DNA of 64,000 nucleotides from an uncultured Gammaproteobacteria bacterium (GTDB lineage Bacteria > Patescibacteriota > Microgenomatia > UBA12405), in the NCBI GenBank assembly GCA_964408995.1, contig CAYPBP010000001.1, positions 74,823-138,822 of the forward strand, read 5' to 3'. Made by a program: the position numbers and the translations under genes. Under the pieces are notes generated by a model. It did not search any database, was not told the origin of the DNA, and saw only the letters and a list, made by a program, of their open reading frames with translations. This document shows, piece after piece, positions 5,434-58,713 of this stretch; positions within the stretch are counted from its first letter, which is position 1; every line of letters starts with the position of its first letter.

Positions 5434-6600
5434 ATGAAACATATTGTCATCGACGCTCGTCTTTATGGCCCAAAACACACCGGCATTGGTCGCTACACTA
5501 AGAATTTACTCAAAGCCTTATCTGGTCTTTCCACTTTTAAAAAAAACAAATTTACCTTAATTGTTTATCAAGACTTAAAAGAGGAAATTAAAAAAGATTT
5601 AGGAAATAATTTTAATTATTGTTCCACCAATATTCGCCATTATTCACTTCAAGAGCAACTTTTCTTACCATTTGTAATTTACAAACTAAAACCAGACCTA
5701 GTCCATTTTACCCATTTCAATAAACCCATTTTATATTTTGGCAAATCAGTGGTGACTATTCATGATCTAATCAAACATTTTTTTAAAGGAAAAGACACTA
5801 CCACCCACAATCAATTTCTTTACAACATTAAACATATTGCCTATCTTCTTTTAATTCAATTAATTATCAAAAGAAACCAAATTATTGTCCCTAGTAATTT
5901 CTGGCGTGATTATTTAATCAAAAATTTTAATCTAAAAAACAAACAAGTTATCACCACTCACGAAGCCGTTGACCCAACTTTTTTACCTGCCCGCCAAGAC
6001 TGCCTGCCCGCAGTGTCTTCGACACAGTCGATGCAAGCGGGCAAAGCTGTCGCCGGGCCAACAACCCCCAATTATTTAATCTATACCGGCAATCTTTATC
6101 CACATAAAAATATTCAAGTTGTTTTAAAAGCTATCAAAAATATACCAGATGTTAAATTAAAAATTATTTGTGCTCGTAACTTTTTTAGTGAAAAATTAAA
6201 ACAACAAATTGATAATCTTGGTATTAAAAAACAAGTAGAATTTTTAGGCTTTTTAGATGACTTGGAATTTAAAAATGTCTATCATCAAGCCCTTGCTTTA
6301 GTTCATCCATCTTTAATGGAAGGTTTTAGTCTGACTGGACTTGAAGCCATGGCTCTAAACTGTCCTGTCATCTCTTCTAATGCTAGTTGTTTACCAGAAA
6401 TTTATGGCCAATCTGTTCTTTATTTCAATCCTCATAATTCAAAAGATTTAGTCAAAAAAATAAACGAATTAAAAAATAATCCAATACTTCGTCAAAAATT
6501 AATCAATCTTGGTCATCTACAACTCAAAAAATATTCTTGGACAAAAACTGCCAAATTAACCATGGCTGTTTATCAAAACTTATTATGCGAAGCAAAGTGA
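5434..6600 (+). CDS. family 4 glycosyltransferase carrying an in-frame GC-rich insert
   Basis: GT4-like C-terminal half (EGFSLTGLEAMALNCPVISS). A GC-rich palindromic segment of about 84 nt lies in-frame at 5986-6069. Confidence 0.75.
   Translation: MKHIVIDARLYGPKHTGIGRYTKNLLKALSGLSTFKKNKFTLIVYQDLKEEIKKDLGNNFNYCSTNIRHYSLQEQLFLPFVIYKLKPDLVHFTHFNKPILYFGKSVVTIHDLIKHFFKGKDTTTHNQFLYNIKHIAYLLLIQLIIKRNQIIVPSNFWRDYLIKNFNLKNKQVITTHEAVDPTFLPARQDCLPAVSSTQSMQAGKAVAGPTTPNYLIYTGNLYPHKNIQVVLKAIKNIPDVKLKIICARNFFSEKLKQQIDNLGIKKQVEFLGFLDDLEFKNVYHQALALVHPSLMEGFSLTGLEAMALNCPVISSNASCLPEIYGQSVLYFNPHNSKDLVKKINELKNNPILRQKLINLGHLQLKKYSWTKTAKLTMAVYQNLLCEAK
5986..6069. repeat. GC-rich palindromic element inserted in-frame in a GT4 gene
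   Basis: CCTGCCCGC occurs twice as a direct repeat. GTGTCTTCGACAC is a palindrome. GCAAGCGGGCA is an inverted repeat of CCTGCCCGC. The segment is over 65% GC against about 28% nearby. Confidence 0.5.
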
Positions 6601-7697
6601 AGTCCGCCTCTGGCGGAACACCAAAAGTTGCTCTATTCTACGACTGGTTAAACCAGTGGGGTGGAGCTGAAAAAGTCTTATTGGACTTAATCAAAATTTA
6701 TCCAGACGCTCCAGTTTATACTCTAATTCACGATCCTAAAAAAACTAAATGGTTGCCGGCTAAAACAAAAATTATTACTTCTTTTATTCAAAAGTTGCCC
6801 TTTGCCAAAAATAATCCTTTCTTTTACACTCCACTCTATTCAATCGCCTTAGAACAATTTGATTTTTCTGCTTTTGACATTGTTATCTCTACCACCTCAA
6901 CTGTTGGCCATTGTTTGTTAACTCAACCAAATTCCATTTTTATTTGTTATTTTCATAATGTAAATCGTCACATTTATCAAAAAAAACATTTCTGGCCCAT
7001 CAGTCAATTAATTTCTAATTACAAAAAAAGTGATTACATTTTTGCCATTAGACCCGATTATTTATTTTGTAATTCCAAAACTGTTCAAAAAAGAATTGAA
7101 AATATTTATAAAAGAAAAGCTAAAATAATTTATCCTGGAATTGACACCTCCTTTTTTATGCCCTCAATTGTAAAAGCAAAAGAAAAATATTTCTTAACAG
7201 TTTCTAGGTTAGTTGCTCACAAAAAAATAGAATTGGCTATTAAAGCTTGTCATCAATTACATCAAAAACTCTATATTGTTGGTACTGGTCGAGATAAAAG
7301 TAAATTAACCAAATTGATAAAATCCATAAAAGATCCCAATATAAAACTATTAGGAAAAGTTGATGATAATCAATTATTAAATCTTTATCAAAATTGTCAG
7401 GCCTTAATTTGTCCTCAACTTGAAGACTTTGGTTTAACTCCACTTGAAGCTCAATCTTGCGGCAAGCCAGTTATCGCTTATCAAAAAGGCGGTTTAACTG
7501 AAACTGTAATCAACCATAAAACTGGTATTTTTTTTCAATACCAAACAGTAAAAAGTCTAGTTTTAGCCATCAAAAAATTTGATAAAAATAAATTTTTAAC
7601 CGAATCTTGTCGATTAAGAGCAATCAGTTTTTCCAGTAGCAACTTTATGCTAAACTTTAAAAAAGAAACTGACATTATATGGAAGAATCATCAATAA
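6585..7697 (+). CDS. family 4 glycosyltransferase
   Basis: VALFYDWLNQWGGAEKVL N-terminus and EDFGLTPLEAQSCGKPVIA are typical GT4. The start is uncertain: ATG 6585 overlaps the upstream gene and GTG 6597 is an alternative. Confidence 0.7.
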   Translation: MRSKVKSASGGTPKVALFYDWLNQWGGAEKVLLDLIKIYPDAPVYTLIHDPKKTKWLPAKTKIITSFIQKLPFAKNNPFFYTPLYSIALEQFDFSAFDIVISTTSTVGHCLLTQPNSIFICYFHNVNRHIYQKKHFWPISQLISNYKKSDYIFAIRPDYLFCNSKTVQKRIENIYKRKAKIIYPGIDTSFFMPSIVKAKEKYFLTVSRLVAHKKIELAIKACHQLHQKLYIVGTGRDKSKLTKLIKSIKDPNIKLLGKVDDNQLLNLYQNCQALICPQLEDFGLTPLEAQSCGKPVIAYQKGGLTETVINHKTGIFFQYQTVKSLVLAIKKFDKNKFLTESCRLRAISFSSSNFMLNFKKETDIIWKNHQ

Positions 7698-29628: not shown

Positions 29629-29640
29629 ATTCACAAATGT

Positions 29641-29662
29641 ACCCCCGCAGCTGCGGGGGTAC
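29641..29662. terminator. perfect 20-bp GC-rich palindrome (ACCCCCGCAGCTGCGGGGGT), a candidate bidirectional terminator between the convergent P60 gene and the lysW-like gene
   Basis: The perfect hairpin is visible directly in the sequence. It is GC-rich in a roughly 28% GC background, and the flanks are moderately T-rich on both strands. Confidence 0.45.
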
Positions 29663-29676
29663 ATTTAATTAATTAC

Positions 29677-48861: not shown

Positions 48862-48972
48862 GTAGACGCGCCGCTGACGTGTATCTAAAATATATTAATA
48901 AACACAGCGCATCTATACATATTTTTAATAAACACCAATAGATACGCCACGCAACCGCGGGGCGTATCTATA
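48862..48972. promoter_or_regulatory. GC-rich palindromic operator-like repeats in the arsR/ndk divergent intergenic region
   Basis: ATAGATACGCC-N12-GGCGTATCTAT is an 11-bp inverted repeat. The related half-sites CGTGTATCTA and GCGCATCTATA lie upstream. The region is GC-rich against an AT-rich background. Confidence 0.4.
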
Positions 48973-49019
48973 GTTCATCAACTTGATTATTTTTTAAATT
49001 TCAGAGAAAATAGACCAAT

Positions 49020-56400: not shown

Positions 56401-56836
56401 AATAAAATTAATAAGAACTAAAAAAAATAATGCTAAAATGGCTTTCTTAAGTTTAGAAGATGAAACTGGCAAAATAGAAGCTGTTTTGTTCCCAAAAACT
56501 TTTGATACTATTGAAAAAATCCTGACCGAAAATAAACCATTCTATATCGAAGGTAAAACTAACCTAAGAGAAGGTAATTTATCAATTTTAATTGATTCTC
56601 TTAGTATGGAGGCACCTAATACTTCACCAAAATATGATTTTGTCATTACAGTTCCTAAATCTGCCAACCAAACTCAATTAATGGACTTAAATAATCTGCT
56701 CAAAAAAAATCCTAATGGTCACAGAGGTTTGATAATTTTGCCTAATGGTAAGAATATCCCACTTAATTATGGCGTAGCTTACAACCAAAAGCTTCAAAAA
56801 GAAATTGATAATATCTTATTGCCAAATAAAAATTAG
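53417..56836 (+). CDS. dnaE: DNA polymerase III alpha subunit
   Basis: MSFVHLHVHTEYSLLDG is the PHP domain start. 1139 aa. Confidence 0.95.
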   Translation: MSFVHLHVHTEYSLLDGLTKIKKLVSTVKEMGMDSIAITDHGNMYGAVEFFKTCKKNDIKPIIGCEVYLAPNGRLDKSTANRRNYHLILLAKNEQGYRNLMKLVSIGQLEGYYYKPRIDWETLQLYHEGLICNSACVEGEIAQLILDDNYQKAKKRAKDYQNLFGEDYYLEIQRHPGLKDQDTANIGLIKISRELGIPLVAANDAHYLKKTDAFAQDVLLMINTQTTINDEKRMSMLAYPDFYIKSPEEMQEQFSDIPDALENTLKIAKKCNFEMELGNWYFPKFKLPKGKTPEDALKELVYKCAKEHYGKLTPEITDRLEYELDVINPKGYAAYFLIMYDFIKWAEKNDTPTNTRGSAGGCLVAFTLGITSVDPLIYQLPFERFLNKDRPSPPDIDLDIADDKRQGMLHHIIEQYGKDAVAQICTFGRMMAKSAVRDTARVLAYEYAIGDKISKLIPLGSQGFPMSIDKAIDQTPELKRLYETDPDSKKIIEAAKQIEGCARHISVHACAIVISPTAITDFSPVQIETGGDKIITQYEMHACEDVGLIKYDILGIRNLSFLGQSVLNVKKNHNIDINLRKIPLDDKKTFEMLSRGDTMGVFQLAGEGMTKWIKELKPNRVEDLMAMVALYRPGPMAIIPEYIARKNGTSEITFIDPKMEKFLDKSYGLLVYQDDCLYTAIELAGYNWTEVDKFRKAIGKKIPEEMALQKEKFIKGCINNGYTQEKAKEIFSLIEPFTSYGFNKAHAASYGMLAYRTAYMKANYPVEYMCALLTAESDDAEKITDGVNECRYLGIIISPPDINKSSSGFEMEENKESLEKLAIRFGLSAIKNVGTAAIDNIINERNTNGPFLSFGDFCLRTDSQKINKRVFESLIKVGAMDQFGERNAILASLEKIRLDCDKLNNKKNNGQSGLFDDPSQKNAKIMAPPDNFVDTTPMTEHERLALEKELLGIFVTENPVSKILAPFQTLGLPKISEILKKDADIPIKIAANLTKIKLIRTKKNNAKMAFLSLEDETGKIEAVLFPKTFDTIEKILTENKPFYIEGKTNLREGNLSILIDSLSMEAPNTSPKYDFVITVPKSANQTQLMDLNNLLKKNPNGHRGLIILPNGKNIPLNYGVAYNQKLQKEIDNILLPNKN

Positions 56837-56895
56837 ATTGCTAGACTAGCCAAGTTTACTTTGATATAATTTCAAAGCACAAATTTAACAAAAAT

Positions 56896-57210
56896 ATGTC
56901 ATTAAAATTTACACTAAACGAACAAGATTTTTCAGTTGGCGATTCCGTCAAGGTCAATTACAAAATCAAAGAAAAAGATAAAGAAAGATTACAAGCCTTT
57001 GATGGTGTCATTTTGGGTATCACTGGAACCGGTGAAAACAAAAATTTCATCGTTCAAAAAATCGCTTCTGACGCAGTTAAGGTTGAAAGAATTTTTCCTG
57101 TTAATTCACCATGGATCGACAGTATTAAAAAACTAAGAGGACCTAAGAGCAAAATTCGACGTGCTAAATTATATTATCTACGTAACGATAAAGTTCGTAA
57201 AACCGCTTAA
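56896..57210 (+). CDS. rplS: 50S ribosomal protein L19
   Basis: 104 aa ending ...PWIDSIKKLRGPKSKIRRAKLYYLR. Confidence 0.9.
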   Translation: MSLKFTLNEQDFSVGDSVKVNYKIKEKDKERLQAFDGVILGITGTGENKNFIVQKIASDAVKVERIFPVNSPWIDSIKKLRGPKSKIRRAKLYYLRNDKVRKTA

Positions 57211-57216
57211 CAATCA

Positions 57217-57330
57217 GGGTCTTTAGCCCCGCCTGCAGAAGCTATCGCTTCAGCGATTGCGGGCAGGTCAGTTGGTAGATCCGCCAACCGGCGGACTTTT
57301 AAGCAATTTATTGCTTCGTTATTTAAAAAC
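57217..57330 (+). pseudogene. degenerate tRNA-Lys-like fragment interrupted by GC-rich palindromic inserts
   Basis: It shares GGGTCTTTAGC, TCAGTTGGTAGA and CTTTTAAGCAAT blocks with the intact tRNA-Lys immediately downstream. It carries inserts CCCCGCCTGCAG...CGATTGCGGGCAGG and TCCGCCAACCGGCGGA. I cannot fold it into a cloverleaf. Confidence 0.4.
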
Positions 57331-57332
57331 TT

Positions 57333-57405
57333 GGGTCTTTAGCTCAGTTGGTAGAGCAGTTGCCTTTTAAGCAATTGGTCGCGGGTTCGAGTCCCGCAGG
57401 ACCCA
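57333..57405 (+). tRNA. tRNA-Lys (anticodon TTT)
   Basis: Acceptor GGGTCTT/AGGACCC, D-arm GCTCAGTTGGTAGAGC, anticodon loop CTTTTAA, T-arm GCGGGTTCGAGTCCCGC. Confidence 0.9.
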
Positions 57406-57463
57406 CTTTCATATATTGATTTGTTTTAATCCCTTGTAATTTTTCTGAAAAGATAAATATTAT

Positions 57464-58000
57464 TTGCTATACTTTTTTATGGAAACAGACAAAAGACCAC
57501 TTTATCTCAAATGGATGCTATTAATTATAAATATAATTCCGGTATTAATAATACTAACATCTTATGTCTCGTTTTTATTACAAAGGATAAGCTCATCTTC
57601 AATAGTATCATGGCCTATGACAACAGGATTTTTTATAATAGGACCAACTCTTTTAATTTCAGTTTTACCTGTTCTAATCTCCACATCAAATAGTAAATCT
57701 AAAAATATTTTTGGTTATGGTATTCCATTACTAATGCTATTAATAGTAATCTATGCTATCTGGCATGCTTCCGTTTGTACAGGCAAAATGTGTAGCTTAG
57801 GAGACGCAGCTTTAATCACATTCTTGACCCCATCGTTAGTAATTTTTACATTTTTTTACATACTTGGTAGTAATATTAAAAAATGGACAGAAAAAACATA
57901 TCGTAATTTATTTATATTAGAAATAGTAATTTTACTTTGTCTATATTTTTTACCTCTCATGTTATTTATGTACAAAAAATCTATTAGTATTAATAGATAG
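57464..58000 (+). CDS. hypothetical polytopic membrane protein
   Basis: Five or six hydrophobic segments. No family recognised. Confidence 0.35.
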   Translation: MLYFFMETDKRPLYLKWMLLIINIIPVLIILTSYVSFLLQRISSSSIVSWPMTTGFFIIGPTLLISVLPVLISTSNSKSKNIFGYGIPLLMLLIVIYAIWHASVCTGKMCSLGDAALITFLTPSLVIFTFFYILGSNIKKWTEKTYRNLFILEIVILLCLYFLPLMLFMYKKSISINR

Positions 58001-58011
58001 AATCAATTAAT

Positions 58012-58686
58012 TTACTTTAGAACATTATATCCAACAATTTCGAAATCACTTTGATTATTGTTAGCCATAAAGAATAAATAATCTGGAGTTATCATATCTG
58101 GAATATTTTGAATATTTACTATATTTTCACTAAACAATTGTTTAAAAATAAGATCAGCACAAGTTAATTTTTTATTTTCTTTTTTAGGAATTCCAAAAAT
58201 ATAATCCTTATCTTGGGCAATATTTATTAAGTTATTTTTTATAATATCTAACTTATTATTGTAATTTTTAGGTCTAACAATAACAAAATTATTCATATCA
58301 AAATTAAACCAATCACTTTTTGATAATTTTTCTATTTTAATATCATCATCACGATTTTTTTCTTTACCAACCGCTTGCACTATTTGATCATCACCTAAAT
58401 AAAAAGCTGAATGTGTAAAATAAGGATTAGCTAATTTGTTAAACAAAAATGTACGTTGAGTAATATATCTACGAATCAAAATATCACCAGGTAATAATTT
58501 ACATTCAATTATTTTTACACACTGAAATACATCATTTGTTAATGAATTTGTAACTTCATCATAAGAAAGTCTAAAAATTTTTTTATAAAAATTTAAACTT
58601 AAAACATAAACACCTAGTATAATAAGAAATAAAGATATTCCAGTCGTAAATATTATTAATAATCTTAATTTACGATTATTATTCAT
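58012..58686 (-). CDS. YiiX/YaeF-like permuted papain-fold (NlpC/P60 superfamily) protein
   Basis: N-terminal TM. His precedes Cys (HSAFYLGDDQIVQAVGK ... LTCADLIFKQL), as in the permuted papain family. Family assignment is tentative. Confidence 0.4.
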   Translation of the reverse strand: MNNNRKLRLLIIFTTGISLFLIILGVYVLSLNFYKKIFRLSYDEVTNSLTNDVFQCVKIIECKLLPGDILIRRYITQRTFLFNKLANPYFTHSAFYLGDDQIVQAVGKEKNRDDDIKIEKLSKSDWFNFDMNNFVIVRPKNYNNKLDIIKNNLINIAQDKDYIFGIPKKENKKLTCADLIFKQLFSENIVNIQNIPDMITPDYLFFMANNNQSDFEIVGYNVLK

Positions 58687-58713
58687 ATATAAACATTATA
58701 GATTAAAAACACT

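Follow-up and report, generated by a model that had tools for sequence, protein, structure and literature searches.

Between the ribosomal protein gene rplS and an intact tRNA-Lys(UUU) gene, the 64-kb window analysed here (by window we mean the whole stretch of DNA) carries a degenerate partial copy of that tRNA gene, broken up by GC-rich palindromes. We read this segment (57217-57332), at a probability of roughly 0.7, as a 'solo' left arm, lacking the nuclease, of a small selfish cassette that resides at tRNA genes of Patescibacteria. No endonuclease open reading frame (ORF) lies in the window, though homologous structures elsewhere have one, and we therefore file the element as a remnant and not as a complete member: it is best read as an ORF-less footprint left by a cassette of the homing-endonuclease type. 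As a decayed scar it is modest in itself, but it exposes a widespread element. The kind of system, a free-standing homing-endonuclease cassette, is known; its widespread tRNA-gene form in Patescibacteria is apparently undescribed. The cassette architecture, the association with a nuclease, the recurrence at the same rplS/tRNA-Lys/lgt site and the polymorphism among near-identical strains are direct observations.

From left to right the region reads rplS, CAATCA, GGGTCTTTAGC, a 40-nucleotide (nt) GC-rich hairpin, TCAGTTGGTAGA, TCCGCCAACCGGCGGA, CTTTTAAGCAATT, a 24-nt AT-rich spacer and tRNA-Lys(UUU). Direct reading and a repeat search show three blocks of the pseudo-copy, all on the plus strand, to be 100% identical to and colinear with the intact gene: GGGTCTTTAGC (57217-57227) is tRNA-Lys nt 1-11, i.e. 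the acceptor 5' strand and the start of the D stem, and repeats 57333-57343 exactly; TCAGTTGGTAGA (57268-57279) is nt 12-23, D stem and loop, an exact repeat of 57344-57355; and CTTTTAAGCAATT (57296-57308) is nt 32-44, comprising the anticodon loop, the 3' anticodon stem and 1-2 further nt, an exact repeat of 57364-57376. A gapped local alignment of pseudo-copy and tRNA-Lys scores 49, against 20.9 +/- 4.0 (maximum 37.5) in 500 shuffles. A preliminary description of this DNA had proposed a non-functional partial duplicate of tRNA-Lys that begins 6 nt past the rplS stop and cannot form a cloverleaf, and all of this is borne out. The stop codon TAA occupies 57208-57210 and block 1 starts at 57217; on 57217-57332 ARAGORN makes no call and Rfam gives no match to the tRNA family (RF00005) even at E<=10; there is no T arm, and RNAfold predicts three separate hairpins. 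The T arm and the acceptor 3' strand have no counterpart downstream of block 3, and no partial copies of the other four window tRNAs were found. The intact gene (57333-57405, plus strand, with the end at 57405/6 by ARAGORN) looks functional and scores 76.3 bits with Rfam RF00005.

In a genome of ~30% G+C, both GC-rich inserts stand out strongly. The first, a nested hairpin at 57228-57267 that we assign to a family named H2 (direct reading, RNAfold), sits between tRNA nt 11 and 12, with outer stem CCCGCCTGC/GCGGGCAGG and inner stem ATCGC-TTCA-GCGAT. It had been reported as a 41-nt insert; the insert is real and its length is 40 nt, the first C belonging to the tRNA block. The second, the 16-nt signature palindrome H1 (57280-57295, TCCGCCAACCGGCGGA, read directly as TCCGCC-AACC-GGCGGA), had been taken for a hairpin interrupting the copy. 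It is a replacement and not a pure insertion: it stands in place of nt 24-31, and the 8 nt that it displaces, GCAGTTGC, are the end of the D stem, nt 26 and the 5' anticodon stem. Nor does the copy run for 114 nt to within 3 nt of the tRNA, since its homology stops at nt 44, as in the nuclease-bearing cassettes described below, and is followed by an AT-rich spacer of 24 nt (57309-57332, plus strand; direct reading, repeats, RNAfold). The spacer pairs with 57301-57307 in a small hairpin, AAGCAAT-TT-ATTGCTT, and ends in 10 nt, TTAAAAACTT, that represent a diverged version of the leader TTAACAATCA (57207-57216), within which the rplS stop falls; the likeness of the two leaders implies that the duplicated unit took in the tRNA leader.

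The L19 protein encoded by rplS (56896-57210, plus strand; 104 amino acids by translation, Pfam Ribosomal_L19 on an identical protein) is 87-88% identical to L19 of several metagenome-assembled genomes of Candidatus Shapirobacteria (Patescibacteria, or Candidate Phyla Radiation, CPR), and by this protein we place the host as a Candidatus Shapirobacteria bacterium. We compared the rplS-tRNA-Lys spacer in 60-odd related loci (L numbers denote compared loci or contigs, P numbers proteins). The tRNA-Lys mostly lies 5-12 nt after the rplS stop with lgt directly behind, and one or more degenerate tRNA-Lys copies are present in about a fifth of the Shapirobacteria loci and in none of the rest. Two designs recur. 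Class A, that of the window, is found in L017, L025, L030 and L040 as ...GGTAGA-TCCGCC-ARCY-GGCGGA-CT(T/A)TTAAGCAAT. In class B (L007, L012/L026, L028, L047, L053, L056) the anticodon arm, nt 28-42, is swapped for TCCCGA-TTTA-TCGGGA, with compensatory variants TGCCGA/TCGGCA and TGTCGA/TCGACA; L056 has three perfect tandem units of it. In the Shapirobacteria loci the D-loop variant of each pseudo-copy is that of its neighbouring tRNA.

A scan of metagenome contigs with the pattern TAGA-TCCGCC-N4-GGCGGA-CTNTTAAGCA extended class A well beyond these loci. The junction GGTAGA/TCCGCC-N4-GGCGGA/CTNTTAAGCA occurs at 99 sites on 83 contigs, with widely different tRNA-Lys bodies and acceptor stems and with both anticodons. 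In all 85 cases analysed the palindrome stands in place of GCNNNNGC, exactly nt 24-31, and in 79 of them the anticodon of the pseudo-copy is that of the local tRNA. Copies upstream of the tRNA consist of nt 1-23, the palindrome and nt 32 to ~44 (the right-hand match has a median of 13 nt, and is 13 nt in the window), while downstream copies continue to the tRNA 3' end. The junctions are identical with and without a nuclease ORF, and the window element has exactly these junctions. We also considered the palindrome as a derivative of the sequence it replaces, and dropped the idea when its loop proved not to follow the local replaced 8-mer. The outer stem of H2 turns up in L028 (D loop of a pseudo-tRNA), L082 (T loop), L097 (D loop), L122, L123, L127 and L153, and L123 has a compensatory inner stem, GAAGC/GCTTC. 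The window's 40-nt hairpin recurs elsewhere in the D loop in L028, where the position it holds in the window is taken by a shorter relative, CCTGCCTGCCGGCAGGCAGG. Viral contigs gave no match to the class A junction and none to the class B junction. The bare 16-mer palindrome has 55 matches there, mostly in GC-rich phages and without tRNA context, which we take as chance matches and not as evidence of phages carrying the cassette.

It is in these contigs that the pseudo-copies meet a nuclease. Of the 83 contigs, 53 have a GIY-YIG ORF, identified by jackhmmer, at most a few hundred nt from the palindrome junction, and many of the 83 are not long enough to show one; a profile search found the ORF in eight Shapirobacteria loci as well. 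In about half of the 83 contigs it starts within a few tens of nt after the 5' pseudo-half, the position held by the spacer in the window. The protein begins MF.VY.I.N...KIYIGQT..L..RL.RHN and at ~85 amino acids is a GIY-YIG catalytic domain alone (Pfam PF01541, E = 1e-17), weakly similar to the catalytic domain of I-TevI and to UPF0213 structures. The ORFs are intact and keep the conserved GIY-YIG positions (both motif Tyr, R..RHN and RE). A full cassette measures ~0.35 kb, with all parts on the same strand and ~20-60 nt of non-coding DNA, and an intact tRNA-Lys lies on that strand in nearly all cassettes whose contig is long enough. The commonest order is pseudo-GIY-tRNA (pseudo standing for a palindrome-bearing tRNA pseudo-copy), the ORF usually extending into the first tRNA nucleotides; GIY-tRNA-pseudo, tRNA-GIY-pseudo and GIY-pseudo-pseudo-tRNA also occur, as do ORF-less pseudo-tRNA or tRNA-pseudo. 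A group I intron in the tRNA anticodon loop was considered as the home of this nuclease and rejected: neither the window nor 20 cassette loci gave an intron match, the tRNA beside the cassette is uninterrupted, and ~20-60 nt of non-coding DNA leaves no space for a ribozyme.

Individual cassettes illustrate the range. That of P0168 reads pseudo-GIY-pseudo (one or two copies)-tRNA-Lys, the copy number differing between samples, and in that of P0202 the ORF reads across the 5' half of the tRNA and stops at the anticodon-loop TAA. P0239 has the same junction with a palindrome variant, CCCGTC-AGCT-GACGGG, that differs by two compensatory pair changes. P0187 and P0234 have 3' pseudo-copies, and P0140 a 3' remnant with a large GC-rich insert. 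P0224 (L216, 570-1015) belongs to a tRNA-Asn cassette with the palindrome after the acceptor 5' strand, and at L057 (4100-4660) a tRNA-Glu is accompanied by three pseudo-copies, the anticodon arm replaced by TCCGCCTTTGGCGGA, plus a GIY-YIG ORF. A second nuclease clade goes with the second palindrome at a second fixed site, nt 28-42. Looking by eye for an I-TevI-like CNNNG motif, we found none in tRNA nt 24-31; CTCAG at nt 11-15, the H2 site, fits CNNNG and is too weak to use.

Expression of the ORF may lean on the tRNA gene at both ends. In L209 and L216 promoter-like TTGACT-17-TATAAT boxes (read by eye) lie upstream of the 5' pseudo-half, so that this half would be the 5' untranslated region (UTR) of the nuclease and the element would make use of the tRNA promoter. 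In many cassettes (L084, L089, L212, L213, L217) the ORF has no stop of its own and ends at the TAG of tRNA nt 8-10, and in some it ends at the TAA of the anticodon loop. With the stop codon inside the tRNA, RNase P cleavage would strip it off and give a non-stop mRNA; we speculate that this could hold nuclease levels low.

Since a search based on the palindrome could bias this picture, we also searched with the nuclease protein. The family comprises 295 clusters of 82-109 amino acids, its named sources mostly Patescibacteria, and each of seven members selected only for protein similarity belongs to such a cassette, at tRNA-Lys in six cases and at tRNA-Asn in one. This result bears on an alternative in which leader and tRNA-Lys underwent a tandem duplication that then decayed and was colonised independently by GC-rich palindromes general to these AT-rich genomes, GIY-YIG genes merely favouring the neighbourhood of tRNAs. 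The hairpins are indeed recurrent and dispersed, as expected from the mobile GC-rich hairpin family of the preliminary description: they lie in coding sequence at 765 and 6603 of the window and between genes or at tRNAs in many Patescibacteria contigs, and in a loose sense the segment is the scar of a mobile element. H2-type hairpins hold differing positions in different pseudo-copies, a hypervariable glycosyltransferase linker in the window holds a further GC-rich segment, the duplicated unit includes the leader, and the window has no nuclease. Against independent colonisation, however, stand the exact replacement of nt 24-31 in 85 of 85 cases on unrelated tRNA-Lys backgrounds, the end of the pseudo-copy at ~nt 44 with or without an ORF, the presence of such copies beside all seven protein-sampled nuclease genes, and the pairing of a second nuclease clade with a second palindrome at nt 28-42. 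We hold this alternative to be unlikely, and keep it mainly because hairpins are dispersed at non-tRNA sites and may or may not be mobilised by the nuclease.

The cassette reading gains further weight from the genomic site of the window itself. In L075, a Shapirobacteria-type contig, the order is rplS, GGGTCC with a nested H2-like palindrome, GIY-YIG, two pseudo-copies, tRNA-Lys and lgt. In L056 and L028 it is rplS, pseudo-copies, tRNA-Lys, GIY and a 3' pseudo-copy with the class B palindrome, followed by lgt; here the nuclease is of the second clade (MAWVYILRLSN.KFYIGST), and the disabled copy lies directly before lgt, where empty loci have the tRNA. Judged from its sequence, the window arrangement is the structure of these three loci minus the ORF. 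Three further loci, L151, L152 and L153, encode an L19 identical to that of the window and show 0-1 mismatches over up to 1.7 kb of dnaE-rplS flank, and they differ exactly here. L151 is an empty site, its rplS being followed at once by the intact tRNA, and L152 is an independent assembly of the window allele. In L153, which represents a third allele, a long insert of AT-rich and hairpin sequence follows nt 8, the D loop contains an H2 hairpin with the class B motif as its inner stem, and lgt comes immediately behind the tRNA. For one nuclease the number of pseudo-copies also differs between samples (L209/L211 vs L210). Presence/absence polymorphism at a conserved site and patchy distribution, by which homing cassettes are recognised, are both found in the window lineage.

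A chimeric or mis-joined repeat in the assembly would be an extremely improbable account of the segment. The genome was evidently assembled from a metagenome, short repeats are present at the locus, and contigs from other samples, L151 and L152, end inside it. Yet L152 is the same allele assembled independently, structures homologous to it were recovered in dozens of assemblies made independently and with different assemblers, and the repeats, of only 11-13 nt, are too short to mislead a k-mer assembler.

The polymorphism argues for a rapidly turning-over element and against a conserved functional RNA, which the preliminary description had offered as a structured tRNA-like leader or processing element. 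Such an RNA could stabilise the rplS 3' UTR, or serve as a tRNA-Lys precursor leader or processing platform of tRNA-like and GC-rich hairpins. The segment is probably transcribed: a promoter scan finds the sole good promoter-like site of the region at 56842-56870, upstream of rplS and not between rplS and the tRNA, and a terminator scan predicts no intrinsic terminator in 56700-57600, so the pseudo-copy segment probably belongs to an rplS-tRNA-Lys co-transcript. (TCCGCC..GGCGGA followed by CTTTT had been considered as an rplS terminator and was dropped on the empty scan.) Its three hairpins are stable (-39.1 kcal/mol, z = -2.67), and in full cassettes the pseudo-half, between tRNA promoter and nuclease ORF, would act as a 5' UTR. 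Stems change in a compensatory way between genomes (TCCGCC/GGCGGA vs CCCGTC/GACGGG; TCCCGA/TCGGGA vs TGCCGA/TCGGCA vs TGTCGA/TCGACA; the inner stems of H2), but this is equally expected of a palindromic protein-binding site or a DNA hairpin. The structure is missing from most relatives and from an identically flanked strain, another strain has another allele, and copy number, position relative to the tRNA and insert content vary freely. Rfam, run at gathering and permissive thresholds on the window and 20 related loci, returned bona fide tRNAs only, with no intron, T-box, tmRNA or other family on the pseudo-copies. A functional RNA is therefore a quite improbable explanation, less credible than independent hairpins.

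Several points count against the cassette reading all the same. A profile search found no GIY-YIG gene or recognisable remnant throughout the 64-kb window, so that the window's link to the nuclease rests on homology of the scar and not on a local ORF; the solo form could stem from co-conversion or local duplication, the ORF never having been at the site in this lineage. Cleavage by the nuclease and its target are putative. The functional tRNA beside the ORF is identical to the naive tRNA-Lys of relatives (L056 vs L045/L050) and should thus stay cleavable, which a simple 'immunity' model does not explain. As class A palindromes were gathered by an exact-stem pattern, the conservation of their sequence is partly built in. 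Finally, the presence of the palindrome in glycosyltransferase genes and in intergenic DNA implies that it may be an independent element piling up in dispensable tRNA copies.

The mechanism we propose draws on phage Seg/Mob intronless homing and on mitochondrial mobile ORFs that carry a piece of the host gene. The nuclease would break a naive tRNA-Lys gene, and the break would be repaired from a cassette-bearing copy, the homology arms being the upstream flank with the 5' part of the tRNA on one side and the tRNA with the downstream flank on the other. Repair would install the ORF and leave a partial tRNA duplicate, in which the palindrome would mark a copy closed to cutting, folding and recombination. 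Further rounds of breakage and repair, or slippage between repeated blocks, could yield tandem pseudo-halves and eventually delete the ORF, leaving a scar such as that of the window, into which the second hairpin family would have been inserted later. From the probable co-transcript the scar would be removed by RNase P at tRNA maturation, and it is probably without function of its own. For the palindrome we see three candidate roles. It may destroy the nuclease site in the spare copy, which fits the association of two nuclease clades with two palindromes at two fixed sites. It may split the homology into blocks of 23 nt or less, slowing loss of the ORF by recombination between repeats, and also prevent mispairing, within the co-transcript, between the spare half and the functional tRNA. 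Or it may be the binding site of a dimeric, domain-less nuclease.

Among known systems the closest parallels are the free-standing GIY-YIG/HNH homing endonucleases Seg and Mob of T4-like phages. As there, the nuclease gene is small, has neither intron nor intein and lies beside its presumed target; it would spread through the repair of double-strand breaks, the flanks being co-converted, and the distribution is patchy and tRNA-linked. SegB is encoded within the tRNA gene cluster of T4. DNA-binding domains are part of the Seg proteins, whereas the cassette protein is only ~85 amino acids and the catalytic domain alone. The cassette differs further in being chromosomal in Patescibacteria, with none found in viral contigs and with a nuclease that is predicted, and in being flanked by part-duplicates of the target with a signature palindrome, the ORF often overlapping the tRNA. 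In a 2026 paper SegB is reported to promote segmental amplification of anti-defence loci (PMC13096335), of which the cassette's tandem pseudo-halves are reminiscent.

A second parallel comes from fungal mitochondria, with the Allomyces atp6-associated mobile ORF, double-hairpin elements and the GC clusters of yeast; a literature search on GIY-YIG ORFs and palindromes returned mainly fungal mitogenome papers pairing the two. There too AT-rich genomes contain short GC-rich hairpins in genes and spacers, some in-frame in coding sequence, and an endonuclease ORF in or next to an essential gene comes with a duplicated gene piece that leaves a pseudogene fragment. The cassette, in contrast, has a bacterial host, a tRNA gene as target, a much smaller nuclease and one specific palindrome replacing a defined 8-nt tRNA segment. 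REP/RAYT systems and Rickettsia palindromic elements (RPEs) share dispersed short GC-rich palindromes, some beside a gene for a small DNA-cleaving protein, and the palindromes in-frame in protein genes of the window (765, 6603, 5981-6071) may be RPE-like inserts. RPEs measure ~100-150 nt and have a conserved sequence, whereas the present palindromes measure 15-40 nt; only a few copies occur per 64 kb. We do not count the cassette among REP/RAYT systems: its protein has a GIY-YIG domain and is not an HUH (Y1) transposase, no conserved GTAG-type guide tetranucleotide is seen, and outside the tRNA context the palindrome flanks are not conserved.

An att-site scar, left in tRNA-Lys by a lost genomic island or prophage of the integrase type, was a further suggestion of the preliminary description. 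Integration at tRNA genes, which are classic integration sites, leaves a partial copy beside a complete one (PMC9897764), and the tRNA is closely followed by a strain-specific segment of 1.3 kb. Integrase scars, however, are typically 3' fragments, with a kilobase-scale element and a recombinase between fragment and intact gene, whereas cassette fragments represent the 5' or the 3' part of the tRNA, lie only tens of nt away from it, and are palindrome-bearing and nuclease-associated. In the window the partial copy is a 5' half, upstream and only 24 nt from the intact gene, the tRNA 3' end occurs once, and no integrase is among the neighbours (dnaE, rplS, two ORFs of unknown function and lgt). 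Homologous structures enclose a ~85-amino-acid GIY-YIG ORF and no recombinase, and viral contigs gave no matches to the junctions. As put forward, the suggestion is not supported, and we regard such an origin as very improbable.

In the full-text literature, with few subscription journals covered and hence without proof of novelty, we found no description of a GIY-YIG/tRNA/palindrome cassette in Patescibacteria; one paper reports GIY-YIG ORFs, and only sparse ones, in CPR rRNA insertions (PMC11270868). Tentatively, at slightly less than even odds, we go further and propose that Patescibacteria harbour an undescribed class of ultra-compact selfish elements. In each, a catalytic-domain-only GIY-YIG nuclease of ~85 amino acids would be nested between promoter and gene of a tRNA (Lys, also Asn, probably Glu), borrowing the promoter and the TAG stop at nt 8-10, and would spread by break and repair of the tRNA, a cognate 16-nt palindrome replacing a fixed tRNA segment in each spare copy. 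The palindrome could be a recognition/immunity module or an anti-recombination/anti-misfolding device, and the window would represent the ORF-lost stage of an ongoing cycle of invasion and decay seen in one population.

If this is true, a minimal nuclease element repeatedly attacks single-copy essential tRNA genes in the smallest bacterial genomes known, and the odd 'degenerate tRNAs' and tandem tRNA-like repeats of these genomes are its footprints. An enzyme of 85 amino acids without a DNA-binding domain, with a cognate palindrome, would then be a new solution to target recognition or self-protection, and the family a possible source of very small sequence- or structure-specific nucleases for enzyme discovery. 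Pseudo-copies and ORF-tRNA overlaps are easily mis-called in the tRNA annotation of metagenome-assembled genomes, and the element would have a bearing on strain-level variation and assembly breaks at tRNA loci. GC-rich palindromes would, moreover, have an organelle-like ecology in the AT-rich genomes of Patescibacteria, in-frame protein inserts included.

Further hairpin types occur within pseudo-copies (L012/L026, L043, L153, L221), namely TCAGCC-NNN-GGCTGA and TCCCGAT-GAGACTTTAGTCGA-ATCGGGA, the latter an expanded class B hairpin. L012/L026 and L153 have in common an AT-rich insert of 80-90 nt behind tRNA nt 8, although their L19 proteins are only 79% identical. A third GIY-YIG subfamily, of the ...GKV.ATKNRRP... 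type, lies behind tRNA-Lys in some Shapirobacteria (L024, L039 and L043); its ORFs are preceded by another hairpin pair, CCGCGTCAAACGCGG ... GTCACGTTTGACGTGAC, and not by tRNA pseudo-copies. The 1.3-kb strain-specific segment between tRNA-Lys and lgt (57406-58713) contains the two ORFs of unknown function, 57464-58000 on the plus strand and 58012-58686 on the minus strand, neither with a Pfam or PHROG match. In L153, whose rplS DNA is identical, and in most relatives lgt directly follows the tRNA, and the segment is a second strain-level indel at tRNA-Lys.

Away from tRNAs the class A palindrome is also intergenic in L093, L099, L124, L131, L136 and L142. In the window its stem TCCGCC/GGCGGA has three copies in 64 kb of 30% GC DNA, far above chance. 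Two are in-frame in glycosyltransferase ORFs: TCCGCCTATGGCGGA (TCCGCC-TAT-GGCGGA, 765-779) encodes SAYGG, and TCCGCCTCTGGCGGA (TCCGCC-TCT-GGCGGA, 6603-6617) encodes SASGG within MRSKVKSASGGTPK, the N-terminal extension of an ORF that starts at 6585. A similar N-terminus of the MRSKTKSASG type, MRSKTKSASGKK, is found in P0064, a homologue of the neighbouring glycosyltransferase gene. GC-rich nested hairpins at 5981-6071 (CCTGCCCGC twice, GCGGGCA) lie inside a GT4 glycosyltransferase ORF (5434-6600), in a hypervariable inter-domain linker with ~15-17 extra residues relative to most homologues, other homologues having different inserts there. Two isolated GC-rich palindromes complete the set: one at 48933-48974, ATAGATACGCC...GGCGTATCTAT, and a perfect one at 29630-29663, AAATGTACCCCCGCAGCTGCGGGGGTACATTT, whose CAGCTG centre is like that of the commonest tRNA-associated form.

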